Source: Candidatus Magasanikbacteria bacterium RIFOXYB2_FULL_38_10
GTDB lineage: Bacteria > Patescibacteriota > Patescibacteriia > Magasanikbacterales > UBA10003
NCBI GenBank assembly: GCA_001783145.1
Contig: MFQT01000010.1
Location: 1-47,449, forward strand
Length of the DNA: 47,449 bases
Reading direction: 5' to 3'
The translations under genes and the position numbers were made by a program. Below, one piece after another: positions 18,287 to 43,877 of the stretch. How positions within the stretch are numbered: the stretch's first letter is position 1; the number at the start of each line of letters is the position of its first letter. The notes below the pieces were generated by a model. It did not search any database. It had not been told where the DNA came from and saw only the letters and a list, made by a program, of their open reading frames with translations.

Positions 18287-18315
18287 TTGACAAAATGCCT
18301 AAAATGTGCTATAAT
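18287..18315 (+). promoter_or_regulatory. perfect sigma-70 consensus promoter TTGACA-N17-TATAAT
   Basis: ttgaca at 18287..18292, 17-nt spacer, tataat at 18310..18315; GGAGGAG Shine-Dalgarno 8 nt before ATG 18365. Confidence 0.7.
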
Positions 18316-18349
18316 TTTAGGTTAAAAGTGGACCTTAAAATCGCCTTAA

Positions 18350-18703
18350 ATGGAGGAGCAAAGGATGAAGACCTTGGAAGGACTACAAGGACGGAACCTG
18401 GAGGGTGCGGTTATCGTGGAGCACCAGACTTTCGGCCGGGAGCCAGTGCACGGCCACATTGAGAGCGCGGCCGTGGAGGGTTACCCGGACACGGTCTTCG
18501 CCATGCGCTGGCAGAGCTACCGCAAGGATGGGAGATCATTCGATCGAACCACCTCCTTCCCCGTGCACAAATGGGCGTTCTCCGAGGGCGAAGGCGGGGT
18601 GATCAACCTGCACCGCCTCTTCGACAACGGCGCCGGAGAGGTGTTCGATGCTCCCTGGCCAAACGCCGGCCTGTACACCATCATCCCCAAGGAGCAACAC
18701 TAG
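18350..18703 (+). CDS. GC-rich hypothetical protein of unknown family (about 112 aa from ATG 18365)
   Basis: About 62% GC against a 35% background, with high-GC codon usage (CTG, GCC, GGC, CGC); sequence MKTLEGLQGRNLEGAVIVEHQTFGREPVHGHIESAAVEGYPDTVFAMRWQSYRKDGRSFDRTTSFPVHKW...; no recognisable motif. Confidence 0.6.
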   Translation: MEEQRMKTLEGLQGRNLEGAVIVEHQTFGREPVHGHIESAAVEGYPDTVFAMRWQSYRKDGRSFDRTTSFPVHKWAFSEGEGGVINLHRLFDNGAGEVFDAPWPNAGLYTIIPKEQH

Positions 18704-18708
18704 CACTT

Positions 18709-18758
18709 GCCCCCTGACAGAAGCCTATAACAAAGGCTTTCTGTCACGGGGCTTTTTT
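18709..18758 (+). terminator. strong rho-independent terminator (long interrupted stem plus U-tract)
   Basis: gccccctgacagaa / ttctgtcacggggc arms with an inner gcct...aggc hairpin, followed by TTTTTT. Confidence 0.8.
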
Positions 18759-18781
18759 ATTATCAAAAAGAGCCGTTCAAA

Positions 18782-19744
18782 TTATTTTTTCCCCACTTTT
18801 TCCCCATCGCTCAACAATTCTACACTTCCCATTTCATCCGTTCTTAAAATTTCCACTCCGTGTCTTTCTAACCGCCGCAGTGTGCGTAAATGTGGATGGC
18901 CGAAATCATTATTTTTGCCAACAGAAATTATGGCATATTTTGGATTCACAGCCTTTAAAAATTCTTCATTGGTAGAAGAATTACTGCCATGATGGCCAAT
19001 TTTTAAAACATCAGCCTGCACATCTGCATCTTGAGCAAACAACTCTTTTTCTACCGGAACTTCCGCGTCACCCATGAACAAAAAACTTGTTCGACCAAAA
19101 ATCAATTTAAAAACAATAGAAGTATTATTTAAATTACTAAGCGCCAAACTTTTTAATTCCGGCTTGTTCAAATCAGCCGGACCCAAAGCCGATAAATCTC
19201 TTATAGGATACAAAAAATCTAATTTAACCCCACCAACCTTTACATCTTCTTTTGTTTTAACAAGATTTAAAGTAATTTTTTGTTCTTTAATCATTTTTAG
19301 CCACTCCAAAAAAGTTCCTGTAGTTTGTAATACTCCTGTATAATAAATACGACCCACTTCATAACGTTTTAAGACCTCCACCAAACCATCTAAATGATCG
19401 GCATGCGGATGGGTTAAAATCATTACGTCAATCTTTTTTTGGCCAAGCGGCAAATAGGTACCTAAACGCGACAGTACTTTATCATCCGATCCACCATCAA
19501 CTAAAATGGTTTGGTTCTCTGGCGTCATAATCAACGCCGAATCCCCTTGCCCCACATCAAAATAAATAACTCGCAAAACAGATTTAGACAAAGACGGCGG
19601 GAGAGAAAAATTCTGCGCGACAGCAGAACAGCCTGATAAAAAAATAGTTGATAATAAAAAAATTAAAAGCACACCAGATTTGGTTAAACATAACCGCTGT
19701 GGCCAAAAAATTTTTCTAGATTTTGCTTTTTTTAGAATTAACAT
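18782..19744 (-). CDS. ComEC/Rec2-type metallo-beta-lactamase domain protein with lipoprotein-like signal
   Basis: 320 aa; LSGC lipobox-like signal; MBL motifs LTHPHADHLDG and KIGHHGSNSS; overlaps the upstream ComEC channel gene by 29 nt in another frame. Confidence 0.8.
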   Translation of the reverse strand: MLILKKAKSRKIFWPQRLCLTKSGVLLIFLLSTIFLSGCSAVAQNFSLPPSLSKSVLRVIYFDVGQGDSALIMTPENQTILVDGGSDDKVLSRLGTYLPLGQKKIDVMILTHPHADHLDGLVEVLKRYEVGRIYYTGVLQTTGTFLEWLKMIKEQKITLNLVKTKEDVKVGGVKLDFLYPIRDLSALGPADLNKPELKSLALSNLNNTSIVFKLIFGRTSFLFMGDAEVPVEKELFAQDADVQADVLKIGHHGSNSSTNEEFLKAVNPKYAIISVGKNNDFGHPHLRTLRRLERHGVEILRTDEMGSVELLSDGEKVGKK

Positions 19745-21227
19745 AAATTAAATAAACTAAAAATAAATAAAATAACGCCGCGAGCCACCAAGGCAGGGAT
19801 AAATTTAAGGCAGAAAATTTCCAACCGGCCAAATATTCCGCCACCTTTAAAATATAACTTAAGACGGCCCAGGCCGCATAGGCAATAATTTTTCCCAAAG
19901 GCAGATAAATTATGCCTAAAAATAAGCACAAAAAACCTAAAAGCATAGCTAAAGGAACGACCGGCAAAATTAACAAATTAGCCAAAGGTGCTACCAGGGA
20001 AAATTGTCCAAAAGTATAAATAATTAAAGGCGAAGTAAAAATGATAGCGGAAAAAGTAGCTATAATAATTTCTTTTAGCCCCCAAAGAGCTGAAATTTTA
20101 ACCAAAATTTTTTCCAGAATTGGTGAAAAATAAATTAGGCCCAGGGTGGATAAAAAAGACAATTGAAAACCAACATCAAATAAAAGCAGACGCGGATTAA
20201 ATAATAGCATAATGGCGGCCGCTAAAATTAAAACTCGGCCGGCTGAAGATTGGCGCCCTATTTGTCTACCCCATAAAACCAAAACACCCATAAGGCCGGC
20301 ACGAATTACCGACGCCGAGGCACCGCTTAACAAAATGAAAAACAATATTACTCCCAAGATTAGTATAAAGGCGCGGCGACGGCTAAGACCAAAAAATTTT
20401 AACAACACCAAAAGACCAACCACGATAATAGTAATGTTATAACCGGAAATAGCAATAATGTGAGTGACTCCGGTTTTACTAAAAGCATTTCTCAATTCCG
20501 GTGGAAAAGTAGTTCTGTCGCCGTATAAGAGCCCTCGCAAAAAAGAAGATTGCGGCTCCGGCAAAAGATAATTTATTTTTTGGTTAAAGTAATTTCTCAA
20601 ATCCAAAAAAATTTTATAAAAAGAAAAATGCCGAGGTTGAAGATTGCTAATAATTTGGGCATTAAAACAAGCCGTCCAAACTCCTTCTTTTTGCAAGAAA
20701 GCCGCATAAGAAAATTGATCGTCTTTTAGTAATTCCTTAGGATCTGTTAAATTACAACGCACTTCCACCTCTTCACCAAAATCATGTAAAGGATATTTTT
20801 CTAAATATAAAATGGTTTTTCCTTGAATTTTTTTATAATTATCATCAACAAAAAATTTTAAAGCTTGAGAGTTTAGATAAACTCTTTGATAATTGCCGGA
20901 AATTTCCCCAGCACTAATAAGTATTCCTTTAACAATTACTAAGTGGCCGGTAAAAAAACGCAAATTTTGCGGACTTTTAGCAGGTTCCGATAAAACAAAA
21001 CGCCAAACCCCTAAAAACAAAAAAATGGAGAGCACAATTAATACTCGCCATTTTTTAGAGATTGTGATTCCTAAAGATACCAAAAGCAAAATTAAACAAC
21101 AACTAAGAAAAAATAAATTTTTTCTAGTTAAACCCAAAACAGAAGCACCGGCTATCCCTATAATAAAACTAACCAAACCGAACAAAAAAAATTTGGATTG
21201 AGATTCGGCTATTTTTTCTAAGAACAT
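19716..21227 (-). CDS. comEC: ComEC/Rec2 competence DNA-uptake channel (DUF4131 plus competence domain)
   Basis: 503 aa polytopic membrane protein; VTHIIAISGYNITIIVVGL competence-domain signature. Confidence 0.8.
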   Translation of the reverse strand: MFLEKIAESQSKFFLFGLVSFIIGIAGASVLGLTRKNLFFLSCCLILLLVSLGITISKKWRVLIVLSIFLFLGVWRFVLSEPAKSPQNLRFFTGHLVIVKGILISAGEISGNYQRVYLNSQALKFFVDDNYKKIQGKTILYLEKYPLHDFGEEVEVRCNLTDPKELLKDDQFSYAAFLQKEGVWTACFNAQIISNLQPRHFSFYKIFLDLRNYFNQKINYLLPEPQSSFLRGLLYGDRTTFPPELRNAFSKTGVTHIIAISGYNITIIVVGLLVLLKFFGLSRRRAFILILGVILFFILLSGASASVIRAGLMGVLVLWGRQIGRQSSAGRVLILAAAIMLLFNPRLLLFDVGFQLSFLSTLGLIYFSPILEKILVKISALWGLKEIIIATFSAIIFTSPLIIYTFGQFSLVAPLANLLILPVVPLAMLLGFLCLFLGIIYLPLGKIIAYAAWAVLSYILKVAEYLAGWKFSALNLSLPWWLAALFYLFLVYLIYVNSKKSKI

Positions 21228-21248
21228 CTCCCCCTTAAATTAAATTGA

Positions 21249-24092
21249 TTAAACAACAATACTTAACAGCTTACCCTTAACAAAGATAATTTTTTTAGGT
21301 TCTTTGCCTTCCAGCCATTTTTTAATTTTTTCGCTAGATAAAACAATTCTTTTGGCCTCTTCTTCTGTAATATCCACCGCCACCTCTAAAGTATCACGCA
21401 ATTTACCATTAACTTGCACAGCCAAAATAAAAGTTTCATCTTTGGCCAATTCGGCGTTAAACTCTGGCCAAGCAGATTGAAAGATTGTTTTCTTATTACC
21501 TAGTTCCTGCCAAATATCCTCTGCCAAATGCGGAGCAAAAGGAGCCAGGAGTTTAATAAATTTTCCAAAATCGTCTTGGCTAATGATGGAAGAATCATTT
21601 AAATTATTAACAAAAATCATTAATTGCGAAACGGCTGTATTAAATTTCAATTCTCCAATATCATCGGTCACTTTCTTAATTGTTTTTTCAATTTCTCTTC
21701 TCAATTCTTTATTTGTCTCTTTGGCCCATTTAATTTTTTGTGAAAAGTTCCAAATTCTCTCTAAAAACCTTCTCATGCCTACCACGCCTTTGGTGCTCCA
21801 AGCACAAGGCTGACCAAATGGCCCCATAAACATTTCATAGAGCCTCATAGCGTCAGCGCCATATTCACCCACAACATCATTAGGATTGATAACATTATTC
21901 CAACGCTTGCTCATTTTGCGGCCATCCTCGGCCAAAATCAAGCCGACGTGTTGTAATTTAGTAAATGGTTCATCATAGTTTACCGCGCCGATATCAAATA
22001 AAAATTTATGCCAAAAACGCGCGTAGATTAAATGCCTGGTGGCATGTTCTGCCCCACCAACATACAAATTTATGGGCGACCAATATTTTTCTAAATTCTT
22101 ATCAACCAATGCTTTTTTATTATTGGGATCCTCATAGCGCAGATAATACCAACAAGATCCGGCCCATTGCGGCATAGTGTTAGTCTCGCGCTTGGCTGGT
22201 CCGCCACACTTGGGACAAGTTGTATTCACCCACTTTGTGATATTAGCTAGTGGAGATTCCCCTGTTCCTGTCGGCTCATATTTTTTAACTTTGGGCAATT
22301 CTAATGGCAAATCTTTTTCTGGCACGCTCACCCAGCCATCTTTCTCACATTTCACCAGCGGAATTGGTTCTCCCCAATAACGTTGCCTGGAAAAAACCCA
22401 ATCACGGATTTTGTATTGCACCTTTTTTTCTCCCAAACCTTTTTCTTTTAGCCAGTTAATTATTTTTTCTTTAGCCTCTAAAGTTGAAAGCCCATCCAAA
22501 AAATCAGAATTGATTGCGATGCCTTCACCAGCAAAACATTTTTCTTTAGGATCAATTGCGCGACGAATAAACTCCACTTGACCTTGTATATTATATTTTT
22601 CAAATAAAGATAAGGCATCTTTTAAATTTTGCCACTCACCGGTGTAATCCTCAAGATCTTCCATCTGCGGTGGTTGTTGTTTTTCTGATTTTAAATTGAC
22701 AATATATCCTTTTTGATATTTTAAACGTTGTATTTTTAAATCCTCAATATAAAAATTAGCCTGAATTGTTCCTAAAAAATCCCCCCTCTCAAAATCCAAA
22801 AATCCTGTCTCTTCAATTATTTCTCTTCTAAGTGTTTGTTCGTCACTTTCTCCTTTATTATATCTACCAGCCGGCAATTCATACTCGCCATTCGGGCGTT
22901 TCAACACATAAATCTGTCCTTTTTTATTTAACAAAACACCTGCCACGCCATCGGCGCGGATAAAATTGGTTTCAACTTCACCAAATTGTTTAGCTACCAC
23001 CTCTTTAATCCCCAATCCATACTTCTTAGCAAACTCATAGTCCCTTTCATCATGCGCGGGCACGGCCATAATGGCGCCGGTGCCATAACCCATCAAAACG
23101 TAATCCGCCACCCAAACCGGCAGTTCCTCTCCATTCACTGGATTTATGGCCACCACGTCTTCCAACTTCACGCCAGTTTTTTCTTTAGCCAAATCAGTCC
23201 TCTCCAATTCTGATTTATTTTTTGCTAGAGCAACGTAATCTTTTACTTCCACCAAATTACAAATTTCCCCTTCTAAACTATGTAGCAAAGGATGCTCTGG
23301 CGTAAGGACAACATAAGTAGCTCCAAACAAAGTGTCGGGACGAGTGGTAAACACTTCCAAACTTTCCTCCTGCCCACCTGCTTTTAATTTAAATGTCACC
23401 AAAGCCCCTTCGCTTTTCCCAATCCAATTTCTTTGCATCTCTTTTATGGATTCTTCCCATTCAGGCAAATTATCCAAGCCCTGCAATAATTTTTCTGCGT
23501 AATCGGTAATTCTAATCACCCACTGACGCAAGGGCTTGCGTTCTACAACAGAACCACAACGTTCACAAAGTCCTCCTTCCAAATCTTCATTAGCCAAACC
23601 GGTTTTACATCCCGGGCACCAGTTAATAGGCTCGTTTGATTCATAAACCAAACCTTTTTTAAACATTTCCAAAAACGCCCACTGCGTCCATTTGTAATAA
23701 GCCGGGTCGGTAGTATTAACTTCTCTGTCCCAATCATAGGTAAAACCCAAAAGTTCCAACTGCTTTTTAAAAATTTTGATGTTTTTTTCCGTAGCCACCG
23801 ATGGATGAACTTTATTCTTGATAGCGTAATTTTCCGCTGGCAGACCAAAAGCGTCCCAACCCATTGGATGCAAAACATTAAACCCCTGCATCATTTTCAT
23901 TCTGGCAATGACATCTGTGGCAATATAGCCCTTAGGATGGCCCACATGCAAACCTGCACCGGAAGGATAGGGAAACATATCCAAAACATAATATTTTGGT
24001 TTGTCGCCACCTTCTTTGGTTTTATAAATCCCCTTTTTAATCCACTCTTTCTGCCACTTCTTTTCTATTTCTTTGTGATTATATTTTTTCAT
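21249..24092 (-). CDS. leuS: leucyl-tRNA synthetase carrying an in-frame Nudix hydrolase domain insertion
   Basis: 947 aa; HVGHP, ZN-1 knuckle CPGC...CERC, editing domain TTRPDTLFGATY, RDWVFSRQRYWG, KMSKR. About 130 extra residues (aa ~375-500) after the editing domain contain a perfect Nudix box GRYNKGESDEQTLRREIIEETGF. Confidence 0.9.
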   Translation of the reverse strand: MKKYNHKEIEKKWQKEWIKKGIYKTKEGGDKPKYYVLDMFPYPSGAGLHVGHPKGYIATDVIARMKMMQGFNVLHPMGWDAFGLPAENYAIKNKVHPSVATEKNIKIFKKQLELLGFTYDWDREVNTTDPAYYKWTQWAFLEMFKKGLVYESNEPINWCPGCKTGLANEDLEGGLCERCGSVVERKPLRQWVIRITDYAEKLLQGLDNLPEWEESIKEMQRNWIGKSEGALVTFKLKAGGQEESLEVFTTRPDTLFGATYVVLTPEHPLLHSLEGEICNLVEVKDYVALAKNKSELERTDLAKEKTGVKLEDVVAINPVNGEELPVWVADYVLMGYGTGAIMAVPAHDERDYEFAKKYGLGIKEVVAKQFGEVETNFIRADGVAGVLLNKKGQIYVLKRPNGEYELPAGRYNKGESDEQTLRREIIEETGFLDFERGDFLGTIQANFYIEDLKIQRLKYQKGYIVNLKSEKQQPPQMEDLEDYTGEWQNLKDALSLFEKYNIQGQVEFIRRAIDPKEKCFAGEGIAINSDFLDGLSTLEAKEKIINWLKEKGLGEKKVQYKIRDWVFSRQRYWGEPIPLVKCEKDGWVSVPEKDLPLELPKVKKYEPTGTGESPLANITKWVNTTCPKCGGPAKRETNTMPQWAGSCWYYLRYEDPNNKKALVDKNLEKYWSPINLYVGGAEHATRHLIYARFWHKFLFDIGAVNYDEPFTKLQHVGLILAEDGRKMSKRWNNVINPNDVVGEYGADAMRLYEMFMGPFGQPCAWSTKGVVGMRRFLERIWNFSQKIKWAKETNKELRREIEKTIKKVTDDIGELKFNTAVSQLMIFVNNLNDSSIISQDDFGKFIKLLAPFAPHLAEDIWQELGNKKTIFQSAWPEFNAELAKDETFILAVQVNGKLRDTLEVAVDITEEEAKRIVLSSEKIKKWLEGKEPKKIIFVKGKLLSIVV

Positions 24093-24116
24093 AAACTAAT
24101 CTTAACAAAATTGTAC

Positions 24117-25217: not shown

Positions 25218-26053
25218 TTAAATAAAATTAAAACTAAAACAAGCAAAAAAGCATATTGCAAACCCTGCAAGGCATTAACCAAAGTGACACTGGCGAGTGA
25301 AATAGCATAATTGATAAGCAAAAAACTGGCCGCTCCGGCAACCTGGCCAAACAAAAATAAAAAACCTGATTGACGCGCTATTTTTTTATCTTGATGAAAA
25401 ATATCATGTCGGTTTTGAGCGCTAAGTAATAAAAATAAAGCCCCGACAAAAGTGGTTAAGCGCAGCCAAACAAAAGCATTGACAAAAGATAAATTATTAA
25501 AGAGATACTTGGTTAAAGCATAAGACAAGCCAAAAAAGAAAGCGGAAAAAAGAGCCAACCAATAAACGCGGCGAGAATTAGATTTTCCGGTTTTGCCCAA
25601 AGAAATTAAAACTGTGCCTAAAATAATCACAACAAAAGCCATAATTTGTTTAGGGTTCAACCTTTCATTCAATATAAAAAAAGAAAAAATAAAAACAAAA
25701 ATCGGAGAAAAGCCGCCAATAAAAGGCGTGATGCGTGAGGATTCAGAAATTTTTAAAGATTTAAAAAGATAAAGTAACGCCAAAGCAAAAGAGATGCCGG
25801 CAATTAAAGAAACAAATAAATTCCACCAACTTATTAAAGCCAAACCCCAAGGCGCCAGCACCAGACCAAAGAGTCCCAATAAAGAAATATAAAAAACATA
25901 TACCGCGGGGTTGGAAATTTTTTTGGAAATCAAAATTTTATCTACCACAGCGGAGAGAGCATTTAAAAAATAGCCTATTAGGGAAATTAAAAGCCACATA
26001 AATATAGATACTGAAATTATAACAAATTTGAGGAATAAAAAAAGAGGACACAA
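25115..26053 (-). CDS. DMT/EamA-family 10-TM transporter
   Basis: Two tandem 5-TM EamA-like repeats. The ORF-track start at 26053 is a TTG; a more likely ATG is at 25999. Confidence 0.6.
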   Translation of the reverse strand: MCPLFLFLKFVIISVSIFMWLLISLIGYFLNALSAVVDKILISKKISNPAVYVFYISLLGLFGLVLAPWGLALISWWNLFVSLIAGISFALALLYLFKSLKISESSRITPFIGGFSPIFVFIFSFFILNERLNPKQIMAFVVIILGTVLISLGKTGKSNSRRVYWLALFSAFFFGLSYALTKYLFNNLSFVNAFVWLRLTTFVGALFLLLSAQNRHDIFHQDKKIARQSGFLFLFGQVAGAASFLLINYAISLASVTLVNALQGLQYAFLLVLVLILFKWRPNLLEEKIKGWVLVQKILAIILIGWGLFLLV

Positions 26054-26071
26054 GCGTTAACTCGTGTCCTC
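26037..26071 (-). terminator. rho-independent terminator ending the GC-rich minus-strand operon
   Basis: gaggacac...gtgtcctc 8-bp stem followed on the minus strand by TTTTTTT. Confidence 0.6.
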
Positions 26072-26242
26072 GGAGGTTCGTGCTTTGTCTTTGGAGTTAT
26101 CCTTAGACTGGCAATCCTCTTGACCGTACGGTTTTACGGCCACTTTATTTGGCTGACCTCCGCCTATGGAGCTTTCATTTACCCTTTTGGGGATGGTTAA
26201 AGCAGAAACCGTTAGATTGTAGATGTCGTAGCCCTGCTACGA

Positions 26243-26857
26243 CTAGGCCGCGGCGGCCTTCTTCTTCGGGGCGGCCTTGGCCTTCTTCCCGGCCTTGGGC
26301 TTGGCCGGCGCCTTCTTGCCCTCGTCCGCGGGCTGGGTCGGGGCGGCGGGCTCCGGCTTGGGCGGCGGGGTGTAGCCCGTGGCCTCGTGGAACCAGCTCG
26401 GCGCCGCGTCGTTGACCAGCACGCCCTTCTCACCGGCCTGGATGCCGAGCGCCTTGACCGCGCGCACCAGCACCATCTTGACCTCGGCGGCCGTGGTCAG
26501 CACCTTGGAGTAACGCGGCTGGTCGTCCTGCCCCGGCTGCTTCCAGTCGTACTTGGCCGGGAAGCTGGACTTGAGGTCCACGCCCTTGGCCGGCTCCACC
26601 CGCACGCGCACCTGGTGCCCCAGGTCTCGCACTCCGATCCTGCCCTTGGGGGTCACCGCCAGCACCAGGTACTGCCCAGTGCTCTCGGTCCCGCCCATGA
26701 AGAACGGGTTGACCTTCTTGCCGTCCTTCTTGACCACCTTCAGTGGCCAGTCCGGGAAGCCGAGCGCCTTGAACGCCTTGCTCATGTCCATGGGGTTCTC
26801 CTTCGGCGCCTTCTTCTGGGGCGCCGCGCCGGTGGTGGGGGTCTCTCCGCACGCCAT
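26243..26857 (-). CDS. basic protein: unknown N-terminal domain plus histone-H1-like Lys/Ala/Pro-rich C-terminal tail
   Basis: 204 aa, about 68% GC; tail PPPKPEPAAPTQPADEGKKAPAKPKAGKKAKAAPKKKAAAA; GAGGAGG Shine-Dalgarno upstream; last gene of the 3-gene operon. Confidence 0.7.
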   Translation of the reverse strand: MACGETPTTGAAPQKKAPKENPMDMSKAFKALGFPDWPLKVVKKDGKKVNPFFMGGTESTGQYLVLAVTPKGRIGVRDLGHQVRVRVEPAKGVDLKSSFPAKYDWKQPGQDDQPRYSKVLTTAAEVKMVLVRAVKALGIQAGEKGVLVNDAAPSWFHEATGYTPPPKPEPAAPTQPADEGKKAPAKPKAGKKAKAAPKKKAAAA

Positions 26858-30087: not shown

Positions 30088-31150
30088 GTTCTCCTCCTTG
30101 CGAGAGTGGGATTTTTGGGTTTTGTCACAGCAGGGTCACCAGAATAATTCCGGAGGTTTTCCTTATACCGGCCACACCCATTCGCCCGGATTGGATTTTT
30201 GTCCAGAATTTTTCTTTTCAATGGCTATTCCAGTTTTATCTCCACTAGTTAATTAGTTAAGGATTTACACTCACCGAAGTGAGTCCTTGCTAAAATTCCA
30301 GTGGCTTAGACTGGTATCACCATCTAGGCAAGCTTATACCCGCTATCTAGGTTCACCCAAGGCTAAAACCTTTAGCTGATCCCGGTTGCTGATCTGCGGA
30401 TTTTTCAACCCTTCAATTCAACCTTTCACAGCCTCAGGCCATAACTGCATTTGCTACAGCCGCGGTCGCCAACCGCTCTTTACAATTGCCTAGCCACCGG
30501 GGCTAGGTTACCTTTACCAGCAAGAAAACAGACAGCAAATATCTGTAAACTTGCGACCATCACCGCCCAGGCCGGCTTGATGATTTCCAACTCCTAGAGA
30601 CCCTCGAGCCTCTTTAGAATTGGAGGTGTAGTAGAAGGACCCAATCTGTTCCTTTCCTGCCACACAGGTAGATCTTGCAGAAGGCATGCCCGGTCCTTTC
30701 CGCAAGAGTCTGTTTCTCCCCCTTCCCAGTCAGTCCCTTTCAGGAAGACTCCAGGGGAGAAAGAAGAACTACCAACAGGGTCAGACCAACCTGCTGGCAA
30801 ACGTTTTAACCTAGGGGTGGCCACCCCCATGGTCGCGTGGTGCACCACAGGACGCGTTACCGCCCCACAACCAACCCCGCGTCATTGCCAACGCCGGGAA
30901 GGTTGATTTTTAAACTTAACAAAAATTTAGTTTTATTAGTGTCTTTATATCAAATTTTGATATAAAGACTTCAGGCACTGCATACTACCCCCTTGCTAAT
31001 TCCGGCAATTGAATTAGCAGGGTTGCTGATTTATTTTTGCGAGGTGGGTTCAGCTCCCACCGTCTGTTGCTTAAGGCAGTGCATTTCTTCCTCCTTTTTG
31101 TTGATGTGTTGAATTGTCAACGAGCACGCAACCACGGTTTTTCACTAACC
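30088..31150. other. about 1.1-kb non-coding, intermediate-GC, palindrome-rich tract upstream of the GC-rich operon (candidate structured RNA, operator array or decayed DNA)
   Basis: No ORF of 100 aa or more on either strand; perfect palindromes ggggtggccacccc (30814..30827), gtggtgcaccac (30837..30848) and gtctttatatcaaa-t-tttgatataaagac (30941..30969); many short hairpins. Confidence 0.4.
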
Positions 31151-31358
31151 ATAGCGGCGAATATAATTTGGATATCTAAACAAACGAAGGTAGATATCAA
31201 AACATTATTTGCCACTAATTTAAGCTTAAAATTATATTTTTTAGGAAACGTATTATTGTATCACAAATTTTAACTTTTGTCAAGTCCCCTGTGGTCGTCC
31301 CAGATAAAACATAAAACCAGCCCAAACAAGGGCTGATTTTTATGTCATCAATTAAATA

Positions 31359-35202: not shown

Positions 35203-36781
35203 ATGGCAGAAACAGCCAAAGCACCCTTACCACCCGCCGAAGTTTCAGAAAAAAGATTTCCCGAGTTGAAAGAATTAAAAAATCCGGAAACATTGAGACC
35301 AGTGGAGCTGATAGAAAAAGAAGTGGATTCACTTTACGTCCCCACTTGGATGCGCACCGGCAAAAAATTAGAACAGCAACTTTACTGGCCGATTGGAGCT
35401 TTAAATATAGAAAAATCCATATCTCCGGAAAATCTCCCCAAAAACTTGGTTGAACTTTTTAAAAACCCCAACGTGGCCAGGGCTTTTTTGCTTAGCCAAA
35501 ATTTATTAAAAACTCCTAATTTTCAAGGCGGCCTTGTTTACATTTGGCCCACTCGGCTTTGTCCCTTAGGTTGTTCTCATTGTATGTTCGGCGCTCCTAA
35601 ATCAACAGAAAGATTGCGTGGTGCCTTAGGGAATAGATTAACTTCCGAACAAGCCGACAAAGCTATACAATTTACCAACGACATGAAAGCGGACGTGGTA
35701 GCCTTAAGCGGTGGCGGTGAACCCTTGGAAGAACGCGACACCACTTTTAAAGTAATCAGGGAAACCCACGCCACCAACATTCATCTAATCACCAACAGTT
35801 TCTGGGCCGGAGAACAAAAAGGAGCTGCGGAATTTTTTGATGAACTGGAAAAAAATTTTCAAGATCGTGAAGCGTCCAAATTACCCAAAGCTAAATTTGT
35901 TTTAAAACTCAGTTTGGATGAGGCTCACCTGCATCATTTGCCCATGGCTAATATGCATCACATCCTTACTGAATTTTTAGCCAGAAATTTTGCTTTTGAT
36001 TTTGAATTAAGCCAGAAATTTTGCTTTTGATTTTGAATTAAGAATGAAATCCATCTTTAAAGAAGACAAGGCGGTGGCCCAATTTGTTAAAGAGTTGCAG
36101 GAAATGCATCACGGCGCCAAAATAGAAGAAATTAATCCTTACAAAGTGCGTATTTTGTTGGCTCCTGGCAAAGAAATTTTCATCACTTTTAAAAATAGCG
36201 TACCTAGCGGAAGAGGCAAGGTGGCGCAAACAGATGGAATTACAGCTAATTACAACCAAGGCTATGTTGATTTTATTACTTCACAGTTGCCACATAAAAA
36301 AATCAACCCTACCAACCAAGCTTTGGGCGGCGATAATGTGGAATATCCTAATGGCGCAAATTACACTATTGAATATGACGGCTCCACAAAATTATTAGAA
36401 GGCTCTCCTTTAGATAATGTGCCTAACATTGATGATTTTAATTTTGTTGATGCCCAGGCTATGATTTTTAAAGACCCTATTTCTTATTTATCCAGATTGG
36501 AAGGACCGGAAGCTATTTATGCCATTGCCGCAGAAATAGATGCCCAAAAATTGGCGGATTTAAGATACCAAAATGCTTTGTATTATAACTTGGAAAGATT
36601 ATTAGATACACCGAATAAAAGAGTTTATGCCACCATCAGAGCCTTTCAAGTCTTAAAATCAACTCATCCGGAAATTTTTAAGGAAGAAATTGATGATCCC
36701 CAAAAGAAATTTTGGTTAGAAGCAGAAGTACCTACTTTAAAAGAATTACTGGGCTTGGACAAAACAGAAAGCGGGAGCTAA
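35203..36781 (+). pseudogene. radical-SAM protein gene split into two ORFs (35203..36030 and 36044..36781) by a 31-bp perfect tandem duplication that shifts the frame
   Basis: CX3CX2C cluster CPLGCSHC plus SGGGEPL in ORF1. Removing one repeat copy joins ...FAFDFEL to RMKSIFKEDK... in frame (~520 aa). Confidence 0.7.
35980..36041 (+). repeat. perfect 31-bp direct tandem duplication (gccagaaattttgcttttgattttgaattaa x2)
   Basis: Copy 1 at 35980..36010, copy 2 at 36011..36041, identical. Confidence 0.95.
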
Positions 36782-36866
36782 AAGTTTGATAAATTAAAAT
36801 AAGCTTATTTCAGCAAAAATAGGCTTATTTTTATTTTGGCTTAATTGAGTGTACGGAGGGCTGGGG

Positions 36867-36895
36867 TTGACAAAAAGGCTAAAAAGTGATATAAT
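36867..36895 (+). promoter_or_regulatory. perfect sigma-70 consensus promoter TTGACA-N17-TATAAT upstream of sufS
   Basis: ttgaca at 36867..36872, 17-nt spacer, tataat at 36890..36895; AAGGAGGG Shine-Dalgarno 7 nt before ATG 36987. Confidence 0.7.
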
Positions 36896-36986
36896 AAGCA
36901 GTTGCCAGAATGAGTTTTCTGGTGATTGCATTTAATTTGGCGATCTTTAACAGGGCCATAATGGCCACCACAAGGAGGGCGACGAG

Positions 36987-38237
36987 ATGACGAAGCTCCT
37001 CAACATCAAGGGCGATTTCCCAATCCTGAGAGAACCCAGGGGAGACGAAGGTGTTTTCCTGACCTACCTGGACAGCGGGGCATCGTCGCAGAAGCCCGAG
37101 GCGGTGATCAAGGCGGAGGAGCAGTTCTACTGCGCCTCCAACGCCAACATCCACCGCGGTGCCTACCGGCTGGCCCGCAAGGCCACGGAGATGTACGAGG
37201 CCGCGAGGGTCACGGTGGCCGCGTTCATCGGGGCCGGCGATCCCCGGTCCCTCGTCTTCACCAGCGGCACCACCATGGGCACGAACATCGTGGCCCACGC
37301 CTGGGCCGAGGGCAACCTCCAGGACGGCGACATCGTGCTCTTCACGGAGATGGAGCACCACGCCAACATCGTCCCTTGGCACCTGCTGGGCAAGCGCCGC
37401 GACATCAAGACCGCGGCCGTCAAGGTGGACGACCGCGGGGTGCTGGACATGGAGGATCTGAAGGCCAAGCTCACGGCCGGCGAGGGACAGGTGAAGCTGG
37501 TGGCCGTGACCCACGTCTCCAACGTGACCGGGGTGAAGAACCCCGTCAAGGAGATCACGTCTCTCGCGCATCAGTTCGGCGTGGCCGTGCTGGTGGACGG
37601 GGCGCAGTCCGCCCCCCATCTGCCCGTGGACGTGGAGGACATCGGGTGCGACTTCTTCGTCTTCTCCGGCCACAAGATGCTGGGGCCGACCGGCATCGGC
37701 GGCCTCTACGTGCGTCCCAGCCGCTGGAGCGAGATCTCCCCCTTCTTTGGGGGCGGTGACATGATCACGGACGTCACCCTGGAGAACTCGGCCTTCAAAC
37801 CCATGCCCAGCCTGCTGGAAGCCGGTACGCCCAACATCGCCGGAGCGGTGACGCTCGCGGCGGCCTGCGACTACCTCAAGAGCATCGGCATGGAGCGGGT
37901 TGAGGAGCACGTCAGGACCGTGGGCACCTACGCCTGGAACAAGCTCAAGGCCATTCCGGGCGTAAAGGTCTACGGACCCGGCCCGGGAGAGCACAGAACC
38001 GGTTCACTCGTCTCCTTCACCGTGGACGGCGTCAAGAACGACGAGATCATGGCGGAGCTGGACGAGTACGGGGTGGCGGTGCGCGTAGGCCGGTTCTGCG
38101 CCTGGCCCATCTTCAAGCGCCTGGGCTTGGGCAACAACGGGGCGGTGCGAGCCTCGTTCCACATCTACAACAACTACCAAGACGTTGATCTGCTGGCCTC
38201 GGTCATCCGGGGACTCGCCGAGCAGGCGCACCAGTAA
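36987..38237 (+). CDS. sufS: SufS/CsdA-type cysteine desulfurase (class V aminotransferase, PLP-dependent)
   Basis: 416 aa, about 65% GC; PLP-lysine motif SGHKMLGPTGIG; catalytic Cys loop RVGRFCAWP; whole-length similarity to group II cysteine desulfurases. Confidence 0.9.
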   Translation: MTKLLNIKGDFPILREPRGDEGVFLTYLDSGASSQKPEAVIKAEEQFYCASNANIHRGAYRLARKATEMYEAARVTVAAFIGAGDPRSLVFTSGTTMGTNIVAHAWAEGNLQDGDIVLFTEMEHHANIVPWHLLGKRRDIKTAAVKVDDRGVLDMEDLKAKLTAGEGQVKLVAVTHVSNVTGVKNPVKEITSLAHQFGVAVLVDGAQSAPHLPVDVEDIGCDFFVFSGHKMLGPTGIGGLYVRPSRWSEISPFFGGGDMITDVTLENSAFKPMPSLLEAGTPNIAGAVTLAAACDYLKSIGMERVEEHVRTVGTYAWNKLKAIPGVKVYGPGPGEHRTGSLVSFTVDGVKNDEIMAELDEYGVAVRVGRFCAWPIFKRLGLGNNGAVRASFHIYNNYQDVDLLASVIRGLAEQAHQ

Positions 38238-38319
38238 CCTTAGAGTCTCGGCAACCCTTGAACAAAAGAACCAATCTCAAAGGGTGGATTGATTCTTAAC
38301 CTAAGCTAACCCTAAACGT

Positions 38320-38373
38320 AAGGCGTGTGTTAACCGGCCCCTAACAGGACTGGAAAGCACACGCCTTTTTTTA
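38320..38373 (+). terminator. rho-independent terminator after sufS
   Basis: aaggcgtgtg ... cacacgcctt stem followed by TTTTTTT (large loop). Confidence 0.6.
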
Positions 38374-38450
38374 ATTCTTAGCAAGCCTACAGGCGCAAAT
38401 TTATTTGCATCTGGGGCGAGCGACGCAAGGCACAAGCGCCATATCAGTTC

Positions 38451-39884: not shown

Positions 39885-39894
39885 AATTTTAAAA

Positions 39895-40638
39895 TTAAAT
39901 TTCTACAATTAAATCATCATGGGCGGCAGTGGTAGCAGGAAAGATTTTTCTGGCCCGCTCTTCGGCCAAGGCGCGAGACTCCAAAGTAGTAAAGGAATCG
40001 GGCCCAAAATGCACTAAGTATAACTGCTTTACCTTGGCTTCCTGCGCCAACTGCGCCGCCAATTCCGGATTCAAATGGGGCCAAGCCGGATTGGGCGTGT
40101 TAAGAGTGGAACATTCGGAAATTAAAACATCAGCCTTTTGCGCTAACTTTTTAAAACTGTCGCAAACTCCGGTATCAGTACAAAAAGTAATTGCCTTTCC
40201 TTCCAGCAAAAATCGATAACCAAAACAAGGATCGGCATGCACCAAATAACTAGCCTCTTTTAAAAAGGGCAGATTTTGCGCGCCCGGTAGCAACTCTTCT
40301 ACGCTCACCGGATAAGGCAAAAATTCAAAAGGTGCAGCAAAAGGATGGTTACAAACAATGTTTAAAATTTCCTTGGTGCCGGGCTGGCCATAAATGGTAA
40401 GGCCATTTTTAAAATCAAAAGCCGGCAAAGTGTGCAAACCAAAAACATGATCCAAATGAAAGTGGCTTAAAAAAAGACGCACCGGTTTATTTGGGTTGGT
40501 AATATATTGTTGGGCTTTAAAAAACCCACTGCCAGCATCCAAGATAAAATATCCTTCGGCGGCATCAATTAAAATGCTTAAATTCTGACCGGTGCCAGTG
40601 GGGCACCAGCCATTGGTGCCTAAAAAAATAATTTTCAT
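39895..40638 (-). CDS. metallo-beta-lactamase-fold hydrolase (RNase Z/BN-like)
   Basis: 247 aa; HFHLDHVFG motif; low-GC native gene. Confidence 0.7.
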   Translation of the reverse strand: MKIIFLGTNGWCPTGTGQNLSILIDAAEGYFILDAGSGFFKAQQYITNPNKPVRLFLSHFHLDHVFGLHTLPAFDFKNGLTIYGQPGTKEILNIVCNHPFAAPFEFLPYPVSVEELLPGAQNLPFLKEASYLVHADPCFGYRFLLEGKAITFCTDTGVCDSFKKLAQKADVLISECSTLNTPNPAWPHLNPELAAQLAQEAKVKQLYLVHFGPDSFTTLESRALAEERARKIFPATTAAHDDLIVEI

Positions 40639-40749
40639 AAATGTAGTGAGCGGAAATTTTAAAAATATTTTAGCCAGGGACCTGTTAGGAATCTTTTTGG
40701 GCCCTTACAATCTTACAGGAAATTCAGATTTAAGAAAAGAGATAATTTT

Positions 40750-40778
40750 TTTAAAAAAAGCAGGCGTTGGGTGCCTGC
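40750..40778 (-). terminator. rho-independent terminator downstream of the Cys-cluster gene
   Basis: agcaggc...gcctgct stem, U-tract on the minus strand. Confidence 0.55.
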
Positions 40779-40816
40779 TGGTTGGTTGCTGATTTTAAAA
40801 GACTTGAATTTTAAAT

Positions 40817-41491
40817 CTATCTGGCCACATCTTTCGGCTGAGGAGCGGCCTGTCCGTCAAAATATCCTTGTGGATGTTCTGGCGGACATTCCAAAGCTAT
40901 CTCAGTTGGCGACTCTGCCAAAGGTTCAGTCGTTTCTTTCAAACCCAAAATCTCGCGCAATTTATCCAACAGAGAAAAACTGTTGGCTTCCTCAACCTTT
41001 ACGGCTTCTTCGCTAAGACCCAAAATCTGGGCGGCCTTGTTGGCAAAATAGAAAAGATCAGGAAGATGATCAAAAAGAACCAAGCTGGCAATATCGGAAT
41101 CGCCGTCCACCAAAGTATACTGACCGCAAAGACCAAGATACCTTAGGTGATAAAGTTGCTGAAATTCTTTCCACCCCTCATAGCTGGTAAAAGTATATTG
41201 GATTGGCCGGGTACTGGCACAGTGAGGTTCCAAATACTTTTTTTCCAAAGTCACTCGCAAAGAATCACCCTCGCCCCTAATGATTCTTCCTGTAATTTGG
41301 GAAATACCCAAAATATCCTGGCCGTGTCCAGTAAAAGTGGCATCACCTTGGAGTCGCAAGAACATCATTGTACCAAGGACTTGGGCTTTGCTGGGCATAC
41401 AGCCTGGACAGCAAGCGCAAGCCATAGGATGCAAAAGAGAATTGCGAAAGAAACCAATCGCCAAAACCGACTTACCCAAAGCTTCTGACAT
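40817..41491 (-). CDS. hypothetical protein with a C-x-CC-x2-C cysteine cluster (possible metal/redox site); intermediate GC (~47%)
   Basis: 224 aa; HPMACACCPGCMP; no confident family assignment. Confidence 0.5.
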   Translation of the reverse strand: MSEALGKSVLAIGFFRNSLLHPMACACCPGCMPSKAQVLGTMMFLRLQGDATFTGHGQDILGISQITGRIIRGEGDSLRVTLEKKYLEPHCASTRPIQYTFTSYEGWKEFQQLYHLRYLGLCGQYTLVDGDSDIASLVLFDHLPDLFYFANKAAQILGLSEEAVKVEEANSFSLLDKLREILGLKETTEPLAESPTEIALECPPEHPQGYFDGQAAPQPKDVAR

Positions 41492-41643
41492 GATGCGACT
41501 CCCTAGGGTTAAATTTAAATATCAACTGTTTTCAGTTTAGCCTATTTGGCCTGTTTGGTCAAGGAGGGAGACAAGACAAAAGTGAATGATTTTTTGGACG
41601 CAATTGTTGGAAGCGAAAGAAGATATAAAAATTAGATGCAATA

Positions 41644-41694
41644 AAAAAACCGGCAATCGCAGATTTGTCGTTGTGACATTTCTTTGATTGCCGG
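41644..41694 (-). terminator. putative terminator after the flotillin-like gene
   Basis: 9-bp stem ccggcaatc / gattgccgg with a long loop, U-tract on the minus strand. Confidence 0.35.
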
Positions 41695-41759
41695 CGTTAG
41701 CGCTTAGTTGTTGTGCTCAGCGCTCTACCCTTTACAGATAAACTGCTTGGGGGAAAGAG

Positions 41760-43802
41760 TTAATTTTTGCCGAACGCACCAGCCACAGCTTTGGAAAGGT
41801 TGCTGTGCCCCAGAATTGCCGCTGCGGACGAAAAATCCGAGCCACCCCCCTCCACAAGTACTTCGGGCTGTTTGACCATCTCCGGATGGTCCTTTAGCAC
41901 CGTCAAGAGCTCACGGAAAAGAGCCAACTCAAGAGTCTTATCCTGACCAAGAACGGCCACCTGAGCACGCTGGCCTTGTGCCTCGGCTTCCAGTCGCGCC
42001 TTGGCGCCCAAACCAAGCTGTTCATCAGCCTGCTTCTTGATCTGAGCAGCGATCAGCGTCTCCTGCTGATCAGCTTCCGCCTTCTCCTTCTCAGCCTGGA
42101 TACGCGCAGTCTGTGCGATCTTCTCCTGCTGGAAGGTTTCGTTCATCTGCTGAGCAAGCTGCATGCGCTTGCCGGGGATGAGCAGTTCGGGAGGAACGTA
42201 GGGATCACCAAAACGGACATCCCTTGCGATGAGACCGGTCTTGAGAGCTTCCGGCTTGACTCCTCCTTCAACCAGAGCCTCCATCTTCTGCCGCTCATAG
42301 ATCACTTGCAAAACCTTCACGTCGCGGTTGCCCAGGATATTCCTCGACACCGAACGGTAGAGCGGAGTGATTATGCGATCTTCCACCTGCTTCAAATCCC
42401 CGACATACGCCACCACAAAGGGAGCGTTCTCGGGCGTAACCTGAACCAGGATTCGGGAATCGAGCCAGACATCCCATCCTTCAACCTTGTGATTGATGGC
42501 TCCATCGGCCGCTCCCTCCGGAATGTCAACCTTCTCTTCCGACACGGTCTGCACGATGGATCCATCCTTGTCCACCGTGAGGTTGAACGTCCTGCGGATG
42601 TAGCCACCCTCGTACCGCCAAGTTTGTACCCTGGTGTCGATCTTGGTAACCGTGTACGCAAAGGGATTCAAGTAATACTTGCCGGGCAAAAGTACACTTT
42701 CCCAGACACCAATATCGCCCTGCGGAACCAAGGGATTGGACAGATTGGTGAGCGCCATGATGCGCGCTTCTTCCTCGGAAACAGCCTTCAGTCCGTCCAG
42801 TTCGGCCTTGATCTTGTCCTTGCTCACAGGTCCTTCAAGCGACAAGAAGGTCGGAATGGCAACCGGCGCCTTATCATCAAGTTCGGCCTTGGCCGGTTGC
42901 TCGGTGGGGGCAATGGCGGTCTTGGAGAGAACCAGCTTGGACTTCCCGGCTTCCTCTTCTTCCCGCTTGTTAATCTCTTCCAACATTTGATTCAGTCTGA
43001 TTCGCCTCTGACCGATCTCAAGTCTAGACGCTTCAATATATGAAGCGACAATAGACTTGGGAACAATGGGGTCGCCAATGTACTTCTGTCCCACGTTGGA
43101 CTTGACCACGCCAACGAAACCAGCATCAATCTCGGTCTCGTCCACGGGATCTCCAACATCAAACAGGTACCTGTTGACACGGTAAGTACCGGGCTTGAGG
43201 ACAGTCAACTGAAGACCCTTGTATCCTCGCGGAAGGCCGTTTTCAGTATCAATACCCATGAAGTACTGGGCATCCAGGTACTGTTCAAACTCCTTCTCCG
43301 GCCAGCCATCAGCCATATACTGACCATCGGGCAGGGCACGACCATCCTTGGCCGTCAGAACCCTCAACTTGCCAGCTGCCACTTCCACCGTGTTCAGCTC
43401 TTCAATGTCGTTCAACACCTTGAGGAAGAAGCTGAACTGGAATCCGGGAGGCAGGATCTCGGCGCGAGGCCCCTTTTGCCAACCAGTCGCAATGACGCGG
43501 CCGGTAGGCATGTCCGTACCATAGATCCTCTTCAAATGCCCCACCTTGTCCGTATCAATGTAGGTGAAGCTGGTCATGAAAACTAAGAAGCCGGCCAAAA
43601 CAAAAGCCGTAATGGAAATGGCTCGCGTAAGCAAGGAGGACGGCTCTGCGGGAGGGAGATCCTTCTCCACCTCTCCACGCCTGCGCCTGGTCTTGTTGGC
43701 CTCTTCTACAGATGCACGATACTCTTGGTGGATGTTTCTCAGCAATCTGGGAGCGAAAGCCCCCACCAGCACTGCGAGAACTGCCAGAATGAGCAAGGAC
43801 AT
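41760..43802 (-). CDS. SPFH/flotillin-like (YqiK-type) membrane protein
   Basis: 680 aa, about 57% GC; two N-terminal TM segments; C-terminal flotillin-type Ala/Glu/Gln-rich coiled coil (TARIQAEKEKAEADQQETLIAAQIKKQADEQLGLGAKARLEAEAQGQRAQ). Confidence 0.65.
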   Translation of the reverse strand: MSLLILAVLAVLVGAFAPRLLRNIHQEYRASVEEANKTRRRRGEVEKDLPPAEPSSLLTRAISITAFVLAGFLVFMTSFTYIDTDKVGHLKRIYGTDMPTGRVIATGWQKGPRAEILPPGFQFSFFLKVLNDIEELNTVEVAAGKLRVLTAKDGRALPDGQYMADGWPEKEFEQYLDAQYFMGIDTENGLPRGYKGLQLTVLKPGTYRVNRYLFDVGDPVDETEIDAGFVGVVKSNVGQKYIGDPIVPKSIVASYIEASRLEIGQRRIRLNQMLEEINKREEEEAGKSKLVLSKTAIAPTEQPAKAELDDKAPVAIPTFLSLEGPVSKDKIKAELDGLKAVSEEEARIMALTNLSNPLVPQGDIGVWESVLLPGKYYLNPFAYTVTKIDTRVQTWRYEGGYIRRTFNLTVDKDGSIVQTVSEEKVDIPEGAADGAINHKVEGWDVWLDSRILVQVTPENAPFVVAYVGDLKQVEDRIITPLYRSVSRNILGNRDVKVLQVIYERQKMEALVEGGVKPEALKTGLIARDVRFGDPYVPPELLIPGKRMQLAQQMNETFQQEKIAQTARIQAEKEKAEADQQETLIAAQIKKQADEQLGLGAKARLEAEAQGQRAQVAVLGQDKTLELALFRELLTVLKDHPEMVKQPEVLVEGGGSDFSSAAAILGHSNLSKAVAGAFGKN

Positions 43803-43877
43803 GTGTGCCTCCCCAAAAAAGTTAAGGAACCTCTGCCTCTTTTAACTCACCTTGAGCTAATTTAGGCAGTACAAGTC

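Follow-up and report, generated by a model that had tools for sequence, protein, structure and literature searches.

GC-rich accessory genes in variable slots of a Candidatus Magasanikbacteria chromosome, probably acquired independently and at different ages

Among the described systems closest to the locus reported here are the horizontally acquired islets of deviating base composition, for which Lawrence and Ochman reportedly put forward an amelioration model, and the gene cassettes of integrons. We analysed a stretch of 47,449 nucleotides (contig MFQT01000010.1, positions 1 to 47,449; hereafter the window) from Candidatus Magasanikbacteria bacterium RIFOXYB2_FULL_38_10, a member of the candidate phyla radiation (CPR), in which four GC-rich blocks lie in an AT-rich chromosome. 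Block 1 contains an orphan gene, block 2 a three-gene operon that begins with a gene for a pyruvate, phosphate dikinase (PPDK)-like protein, block 3 a SufS-family cysteine desulfurase gene, and block 4 a gene for an SPFH/Band-7 membrane protein together with a neighbouring gene. Our reading has three parts: the four blocks are genuine parts of the chromosome of a groundwater Candidatus Magasanikbacteria; they hold accessory genes of higher-GC ancestry in variable slots between conserved housekeeping genes; and they were acquired independently and at different ages, not in one recent wave. We assign this reading as a whole a probability of about 0.7. The genomes of CPR bacteria are tiny, these bacteria rely on other cells, and their gain and retention of foreign functions are poorly understood. 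Within the window there would be several independent acquisitions from high-GC lineages, each under a strong resident promoter, and none of the customary mobile-element machinery.

Like the islets of the amelioration model, the blocks have atypical GC content and codon usage, are absent from sister genomes and occupy variable stretches flanked by conserved genes. The SPFH gene conforms to the model, with a GC content at third codon positions (GC3) of ~0.97 in relatives and 0.64 in the window, and with a Falkowbacteria-named copy at the background value. Typical acquired islets differ from the blocks in two respects. First, the family assignments recorded for the called genes of the window include no integrase or transposase, no tRNA or tmRNA was found in it, and no direct repeats were found to flank any block. 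Of the features used to recognise genomic islands, integrative and conjugative elements or prophages, the blocks show atypical composition and absence from relatives but not an integrase, a tRNA site or repeats. Second, the cargo stands behind resident promoters of the lineage's own type. Block 2 also departs from the model itself, being un-ameliorated despite saturated synonymous divergence. With integron cassettes the blocks share swappable single-gene cargo at a fixed position, resident expression signals and differing cargo in sister genomes. However, no IntI is on record for the called genes and no repeats were found at the block ends, attC sites not having been specifically searched for; moreover, promoter and terminator are separate for each slot, and the slots are dispersed rather than arrayed. 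Horizontal acquisition is a known kind of event; here it comes without mobile-element hallmarks, with resident slots and with one composition that resists amelioration.

A sliding-window profile of the window gave a background GC of 0.29-0.45 and four GC-rich stretches, at 18.2-18.8 kb (GC up to 0.58), 26.0-31.0 kb (0.46-0.69), 36.8-38.4 kb (0.52-0.68) and 41.6-43.8 kb (0.51-0.58). The steps in GC are sharp and coincide with gene boundaries. When GC was calculated by codon position for each gene, the seven genes in the four blocks had GC3 values of 0.43-0.97 and the remaining genes values of 0.20-0.45. GC at first and second codon positions is raised as well in the block genes, so that their amino-acid usage is also of the high-GC type. 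Both measurements bear out an earlier reading made from the sequence only, which had pointed to four high-GC blocks in a low-GC CPR chromosome. The description of two blocks has to be corrected. Block 2 is coding only in part, since 30088-31358, a region of 1271 nt with 45% GC, has no open reading frame (ORF) longer than 84 aa; in block 4 the SPFH gene is clearly deviant but the rest of the block is not. Two other sources of the GC content were tried and rejected: structural RNA genes (a whole-window Rfam scan returned an L10 leader only, and ARAGORN returned nothing), and transcription-associated, strand-biased mutation (neither the GC skew nor the AT skew of the blocks stands out). We attribute foreign ancestry to the blocks because all three codon positions are shifted, because SPFH relatives have GC3 values of 0.97-0.98, and because of the taxa among the top matches of SufS.

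Gene order was compared with five sister Magasanikbacteria (L008-L012), which were obtained in an IF-2-centred scan of GTDB species genomes and whose IF-2 is 74-87% identical to that of the window. The conserved order in the sisters is HU, YmdB, RNase Y; IF-2, Trx, GDH; EamA, GH-like, LeuRS, ComEC, MBL; YkuD, XseA. None of the GC-rich block genes was found in these five. GDH directly adjoins EamA in L010 and L011, MBL adjoins YkuD in L010 at a distance of 91 bp, and RNase Y adjoins IF-2 in L009-L011, L010 being also recorded with a different gene between these two. The intergenic positions that bear blocks vary in every genome compared. Between MBL and YkuD, L011 carries an 850-bp insert with another gene and L008 a small hydrophobic ORF, which makes three different cargos for this slot. 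Since the sisters keep the gene order without the blocks, or with other cargo in the same slot, the blocks are insertions into conserved synteny. Atypical GC and absence from L008-L012 together support the earlier suggestion that the blocks are compositionally foreign acquisitions. The proposed comparison of synteny in related genomes had a divided outcome: the blocks are absent from L008-L012, and block 2 is found at the same locus in the diverged sister species L087.

Such a pattern of composition might also arise if fragments of a high-GC organism had been joined to a CPR contig during assembly or binning, and the sharpness of the compositional steps at gene boundaries would suit such a chimera. 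Seven contigs were located by exact-protein look-ups, fetched and compared with the window. They come from six sample records in three sources (ENA, JGI and Logan) and agree with the window at 99.98-100% over every junction. Host genes flank each block on both sides on a single contig of up to 139 kb, and homologous module and slot structures exist in sister species. We therefore consider a chimera, which the sequence-only reading had proposed, to be highly improbable.

The same reading had placed the blocks at 18287 and 36867 behind textbook promoters. Both promoters were found, but the list was incomplete. The pattern TTGACA-N14-TGNTAYAAT occurs four times in the window, at 18287(+), 31283(-), 36867(+) and 43926(+), against 0.05 occurrences expected. 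Three of these predicted promoters drive blocks 1, 2 and 3, the one at 31283(-) being that of block 2, and the fourth drives the native rny gene for RNase Y. Since the rny promoter is of the same type and is kept in sister genomes, the textbook promoters are of a type native to the lineage. Homologues in sister genomes were found for the promoters of blocks 1 and 4. P1, the promoter of block 1, stands back to back with the YkuD promoter and is homologous to the L008 sequence TTGACAAAATGACTAAAAAATGCTA, which lies there upstream of a different small ORF. P2, the promoter of block 2, lies just downstream of the GDH terminator (31313-31340). The leader behind P3, the promoter of block 3, is 91 nt long and contains a 5′ hairpin (36898-36929) as well as an AAGGAGG Shine-Dalgarno site. 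Each block is predicted to be a self-contained transcription unit: it has a lineage-type promoter, its leader forms a 5′ hairpin, translation would begin at a strong Shine-Dalgarno site, and transcription would end at an intrinsic terminator. The sister genomes hold homologous promoter/terminator slots that are empty or carry other cargo. If this is true, the slots would represent a previously undescribed domestication of foreign genes by reduced symbionts.

A perfect -35 element, an extended -10 element, a strong Shine-Dalgarno site and a clean terminator could also mark an engineered cassette. However, sister genomes contain sequences homologous to the consensus promoters, and the same type of promoter serves the native rny gene and is kept in sisters that include one Lac Pavin record. 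Moreover, the sequences come from environmental groundwater metagenome records, and the cargo proteins have no close relatives anywhere searched. Deliberate construction, another proposal of the earlier reading, has a vanishingly small chance of being correct.

The age of the blocks can be approached from their relatives. The SPFH protein matches PF01145 (Band_7) with 44.6 bits against a cut-off of 23.6, and its nearest relatives are 58-64% identical. The two relatives that we examined are in genomes of 70-72% GC, where their GC3 is 0.97-0.98; they are surrounded by genes for multi-haem cytochromes and a TonB-dependent receptor, neighbours that are not CPR-like in appearance. The Falkowbacteria-named copy, 55% identical, has a GC3 at its background. 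The SPFH gene, with its GC3 of 0.64, thus seems to have come from a high-GC lineage long ago and to have ameliorated in part, and the statement that the blocks show no amelioration does not hold for block 4. At 3500-4600 of L012, a sister Magasanikbacterium in a Lac Pavin record (IF-2 86% identical), a gene for a 276-aa SPFH-like lipoprotein (GC 0.64, GC3 0.91) stands between RNase Y and IMPDH behind the consensus promoter TTGACAAAAACCAGAAAATGTGCTATACT. The promoter, 5′ hairpin leader and terminator of this gene are homologous to those of the window SPFH gene, whereas the two proteins are barely alignable (E = 0.01). Homologous untranslated regions (UTRs) around unlike proteins indicate that the expression slot is ancestral and that its cargo differs.

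An unusually recent transfer to several sites, as proposed by the sequence-only reading, would mean that all four blocks entered too recently for amelioration to begin. GC3 values of 0.91-0.97 in a genome with a GC3 of ~0.35 are in its favour, as are the absence of the blocks from several sister genomes and the restriction of SufS and the orphan gene to this species-level population. Searches of 5.8e9 and 1.84e9 proteins, however, gave no near-identical donor, the best non-self identities being 55% for SufS, 59% for the PPDK-like protein, 64% for the SPFH protein and 39% for the orphan. The best matches gave named taxa for SufS and relatives in high-GC genomes for the SPFH protein, but no donor-grade match for any block. 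The GC3 of the SPFH gene has already fallen to 0.64 from the ~0.97 of its relatives. A species that has diverged from the window to saturation at synonymous sites carries block 2 at the same locus, and within this one operon GC3 ranges from 0.56 to 0.97 in a pattern that is alike in both species. As a general reading, recent transfer fails for blocks 2 and 4, and for all four blocks together we regard it as quite unlikely. SufS and the orphan gene, for which no donor was found, may have been acquired recently.

A departure from amelioration was found in block 2. L087 is a sister Magasanikbacterium species in which IF-2, GDH and Trx are 91, 85 and 71% identical to those of the window, respectively. 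It carries the block 2 module at the same place, after GDH, with identities of 59% for the PPDK-like protein, 65% for the phosphatase and 50% for the small protein. Between the window and L087, the proportion of four-fold degenerate sites that differ is 52-64% for housekeeping genes and 53-61% for the genes of the module; synonymous sites are therefore saturated. Nevertheless, GC3 is nearly the same gene by gene (window/L087): 0.63/0.62 for the PPDK-like gene, 0.56/0.62 for the phosphatase gene and 0.97/0.99 for the small gene. The two copies of the PPDK-like protein are each other's nearest relatives. A second, unrelated pair of lineages (L113 and L121), in which the module lies between RecR and CysS, gave the same pattern: the four-fold divergence of the flanks is 0.66-0.79, flank GC3 is 0.36-0.51 and module GC3 is 0.60-0.88. 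Among non-redundant loci, GC3 of the PPDK-like gene exceeded that of the flanks in 24 of 26, with a mean difference of +0.12. The small gene, which has the highest GC3 of the module, exceeded the PPDK-like gene in all 19 loci compared and the flanks in 18 of the 19 (mean +0.30). The regression on background had a slope of only 0.41, and module GC3 reaches 0.97-0.99 inside CPR genomes of 35-45% GC. An unusually recent arrival, as proposed for all four blocks, is therefore not supported for block 2: the block is at the same locus in L087, four-fold sites are saturated, and the GC3 pattern has been kept.

Saturated synonymous divergence with the same gene-specific GC3 argues that the GC-richness of block 2 is maintained. 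We put forward only tentatively that this GC-richness, and perhaps that of all cargo genes, is an actively maintained, gene-specific property rather than a leftover of transfer; we hold this to be possible but short of probable. Maintenance might come from selection on the transcript or the DNA, from biased conversion, or from repeated allelic replacement, and block 2 would have been acquired before the split of two species whose synonymous divergence is saturated. A module that stays GC-rich in AT-rich genomes past synonymous randomisation contradicts the simple expectation of amelioration. Block 2 is thus a natural test case for the old question of what sets GC content, be it mutation, selection or biased gene conversion, and active maintenance, if true, would mean strong selection on transcript or DNA composition or localised GC-biased conversion.

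In repeated allelic replacement, the slots would be hot spots that re-import GC-rich alleles from high-GC donors, for instance from host or neighbour DNA taken up through ComEC or a type IV secretion system (T4SS), and each allele would reside too briefly to ameliorate. The SPFH slot, with its 680-aa gene in the window and 276-aa gene of GC3 0.91 in L012 within homologous UTRs, and the MBL/YkuD slot with three different cargos are what such exchange would produce; ComEC is encoded in the window, a T4SS adjoins it, and SPFH has high-GC relatives. On the other hand, a quick neighbour-joining tree placed the PPDK-like copies from low-GC backgrounds in deep clades of their own and not as sisters of the high-GC copies, the module copies of the window and L087 are nearest to each other, and no block has a donor-grade match. 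We consider replacement unlikely.

Several points weigh against our reading of the blocks as old acquisitions, one of which has kept its composition. The argument from persistence presumes vertical descent, or long residence, of block 2 in low-GC genomes, and repeated replacement at the same hot spot from unsampled high-GC donors, unlikely as we take it to be, would run counter to this. The tree of PPDK-like copies was made quickly and without support values, the flank GC3 values come from simple longest-ORF calls, and the 26 loci are phylogenetically non-independent. No integration mechanism is visible, neither an integrase nor repeats, and for SufS and the orphan gene no donor was found in the databases searched.

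The SufS protein of block 3 matches PF00266 (Aminotran_5) over its full length (E = 8e-124) and passes the SufS family model TIGR01979 with 476.1 against a cut-off of 475.1. In this it resembles the group II cysteine desulfurases of the SufS type. It differs from them in being encoded by a stand-alone gene, without sufBCDU neighbours in the window, with a GC3 of 0.91 in a low-GC genome and with a nearest non-self homologue, among 5.8e9 proteins, of 55% identity. The named top matches include Thermomicrobiaceae, Longimicrobiaceae, Limnochordales and Chloroflexi records. Plasmid origin was tried and rejected: the best plasmid DNA match of SufS is ≤70% identical, and the orphan gene has no plasmid match. 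A known defence system was likewise rejected, since SufS gave the only PADLOC match, to the generic SspA and DndA desulfurase models, and partner genes are lacking. Immediately upstream of SufS, at 35203-36781 (+), are a radical-SAM protein (275 aa, weak YydG/SPASM-type matches) and a 245-aa protein, both of host-like GC; these two and SufS are all absent from L009-L012. It is possible that the desulfurase supplies iron-sulphur clusters to the neighbouring radical-SAM enzyme.

The orphan gene of block 1 has no match in Pfam, NCBIfam, PHROG or PADLOC. Its true start is probably the ATG at 18365, after GGAGG, which gives 112 aa, the length of the database entry. A search of 1.84e9 representatives returned six matches, namely the protein itself, a variant, two small proteins of 36-39% identity, and two doubtful matches to repeat proteins. 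The 224-aa gene beside SPFH, part of the variable region of block 4, has no family match in Pfam, NCBIfam, PHROG or PADLOC and is absent from sisters L009-L012.

The claim that the blocks lack any mobility signature is correct inside the window for integrases, transposases, tRNA genes and repeats, but it does not extend beyond it. A conjugation-type T4SS cluster starts ~0.5 kb past the right end (position 47449) on the same contig (L139, 12135-20816). It encodes a 912-aa FtsK/TrwB-like coupling protein, Replic_Relax, TrbC-like and PrgI-like proteins and a VirB4/TraC-like ATPase, and homologues of it were found in no other fetched locus, sister loci included. A single island of cluster and blocks was rejected: the cluster has a host-like GC (GC3 0.37-0.47), and the conserved rny-ymdB-hup genes separate it from the blocks. 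In L010 the place beyond HU is occupied instead by proteins that we take to be of methyltransferase, DUF262/HNH and HTH-ImmA types. In the mechanism that we favour, foreign DNA would be imported and then integrated into intergenic hot spots by illegitimate or homology-facilitated recombination, without site-specific recombinases, and imported genes would be retained only where they land behind an active resident promoter. The ComEC gene in the window and the conjugative-type T4SS cluster just outside it are candidate routes of import. A survey of the literature on CPR high-GC islands and on Magasanikbacteria gave no title bearing on these blocks. The features of the blocks are listed in Table 1.

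Table 1. Predicted genes and signals of the four GC-rich blocks and of rny (positions in the window)
Feature	Position	Strand	Remarks
Promoter P1, TTGACA-N17-TATAAT, extended -10	18287-18315	+	Drives block 1 gene; pattern match
Block 1 orphan ORF, 117 aa	18350-18703	+	GC 0.61, GC3 0.80
Intrinsic terminator, block 1 gene	18711-18759	+	Hairpin ccccctgacagaagcct / aggctttctgtcacgggg, then T-run
Intrinsic terminator closing block 2 operon	26044-26071	-	12-bp stem, then T7
Block 2 gene 3, small basic protein, 204 aa	26243-26857	-	GC 0.70, GC3 0.97
Block 2 gene 2, DSP/PTP-like phosphatase (Cys-based), 280 aa	26875-27717	-	GC3 0.56; CX5R, YCIGSHGRTG
Block 2 gene 1, PPDK-like phosphotransferase, 782 aa	27739-30087	-	GC3 0.63
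Long non-coding leader of block 2 operon	30088-31254	-	Longest ORF 84 aa, GC 0.45
Promoter P2, TTGACA-N17-TACAAT, extended -10	31255-31283	-	Block 2 operon
Promoter P3, perfect TTGACA-N17-TATAAT, extended -10	36867-36895	+	Block 3
Block 3 stand-alone SufS-family cysteine desulfurase, 416 aa	36987-38237	+	GC 0.65, GC3 0.91
Intrinsic terminator, SufS	38318-38372	+	Hairpin aaggcgtgtg...cacacgcctt, then T7
224-aa gene, block 4	40817-41491	-	GC 0.46, GC3 0.43, mildly elevated
SPFH 3′ UTR and terminator	41643-41700	-	76% mean per-column identity with L012, hairpin arms conserved
SPFH/Band-7 membrane protein, 680 aa	41760-43802	-	GC 0.55, GC3 0.64
SPFH promoter and 5′ hairpin leader	43825-43907	-	TTGACA at 43907-43902; aligns with L012
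Native rny (RNase Y) promoter	43926-43954	+	Same consensus type; conserved in L012 and L010

We also characterised the proteins of the block 2 module. The PPDK-like protein has an ATP-grasp domain (PF01326) and a phospho-His swivel domain (PF00391) with an invariant GGxTSHAAVVAR motif, as have PPDK, phosphoenolpyruvate (PEP) synthase, rifampin phosphotransferase and glucan-water dikinase. A Pfam search did not find the PEP/pyruvate TIM barrel PF02896. In agreement with this, the protein scored 629 against a cut-off of 843 for TIGR01828, matching model positions 2-526 only, while it exceeded the cut-off of NF004531, a model of 534 positions named pyruvate, phosphate dikinase. A bona fide PPDK differs in having PF02896 where the block 2 protein has an all-helical domain of 280 aa. 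This ~280-aa C-terminal domain is common to 19 full-length homologues, with invariant ELRH, GGxxW and DHxFDLxHNxGxxFxK motifs, and profile searches found no Pfam or PDB relative of it. A fold assignment was tried and gave only generic helical bundles, several of them ferritin-like, and was not usable. The phosphatase matches the Pfam families Tc-R-P (26.8 bits) and PTP-SAK (25.9 bits), both just below the cut-off of 27, and also phrog_17568; the CX5R signature (C-IGSHG-R) can be seen in the translation. The small basic protein has the core FMGGTE..Y.V.AV...GRIGVR...VRVEP between tails rich in Lys, Ala and Pro.

The trio of genes recurs in L087, L088, L091 and many of 43 metagenome loci, and the constant linkage of the PPDK-like gene to genes for a phosphatase and a small basic protein sets its product apart from known His-swivel phosphotransferases. 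The pairing of a dikinase with a dual-specificity phosphatase recalls glucan-water dikinase with SEX4 or laforin, which is an analogy. By such analogy, the module might carry out a reversible phosphorylation in which phosphate passes from ATP to His to a substrate and is removed by the Cys-phosphatase; either the small basic protein or the leader RNA might be a partner in this cycle. Phage PPDK/kinase proteins of phrog_18609 (from Vibrio, Stenotrophomonas, Rhodobacter and Rhizobium phages) are 36-45% identical to the N-terminal two-thirds of the PPDK-like protein. They differ in matching residues ~5-575 only, without the C-terminal domain save for a weak phrog_20946 match, and no phage genes stand beside the window copy. 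Phage origin was rejected, since the PHROG and phage tblastn matches are distant and cover only these N-terminal two-thirds. In L091 (13496-16275), a genome of 60% GC, the PPDK-like module lies beside four genes with T4SS_pilin (PF18895) matches; these pilin genes and the T4SS near the window hint at an association of the module with conjugation or pilus loci.

The leader of the block 2 operon is long (~1.1 kb) and non-coding, and its conserved core at ~30300-30900 is probably structured. Identity to L087 is 75-81% in three patches (30866-30792, 30587-30424 and 30383-30333), higher than the 66% of the adjacent coding sequence, and L087 has a gap of 1251 nt in the same place. Nucleotide similarity of the leader was detectable in the window and L087 only, apart from a short motif, GGUGAACCUAG..GGGUAUA, shared with L088. 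RNAalifold applied to the window and L087 gave 146 pairs, of which 33 were changed on both sides, compared with 16.4 in shuffles and 1-6 in slid controls; against this stands that two sequences underlie the structure and that the count is in part circular. Rfam gave no match at gathering level, and in E-value mode only matches at chance level (E ≥0.27). To judge by its sequence, the region is suggestive of a structured leader or a non-coding RNA. None of the families described in Pfam, NCBIfam, PHROG, PADLOC, Rfam or PDB matches the module, its C-terminal domain or its leader. What emerges from the analysis is a three-gene phosphotransfer module that is widely distributed, has not been characterised before and possesses a conserved leader RNA. 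With its leader of ~600-1100 nt and a new helical domain, supposed to be catalytic, the module might be a new RNA-associated phospho-transfer system.

Some further observations concern the surroundings of the blocks. The L10 leader returned by the Rfam scan (RF00557, 15033-15184 (-), 51.4 bits against a gathering score of 44) is located upstream of rplJ-rplL and is an ordinary native cis-regulatory element. On the same contig, ~4 kb left of the window start, a 131-aa gene (L137, 16611-17006) directly after rpmG (L33) has a GC of 0.51 and a GC3 of 0.56 and no Pfam match; the pattern of GC-rich cargo may thus extend past the window. In the JGI gene calls SufS is replaced by a 371-aa antisense ORF (window 36879-37994 (-); L139 1093-2208) and the 204-aa GC-rich gene by a 140-aa ORF in an alternative frame (window 26430-26852 (-); L003 18081-18503), while the ENA calls have SufS correct. 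Such GC-rich genes are probably under-annotated in public data, because in a low-GC genome they mislead gene callers.

A 247-aa MBL-fold protein at 39895-40638 (-), of host-like GC, has RNase Z-like matches. It also matches the phosphodiesterase model NF041851 (cyclic-nucleotide-degrading) and, faintly, Anti-Pycsar Apyc1, and no match to it was found in the sister loci L009-L012. In the leucyl-tRNA synthetase at 21249-24092 (-), a NUDIX hydrolase domain (PF00293) is inserted between the two tRNA-synt_1 halves, and its NUDIX box, GRYNKGESDEQTLRREIIEETGF, can be read in the translation. Sisters L010 and L011 lack a counterpart of residues ~384-513 of the synthetase, but L008 matches it across this stretch without a break.

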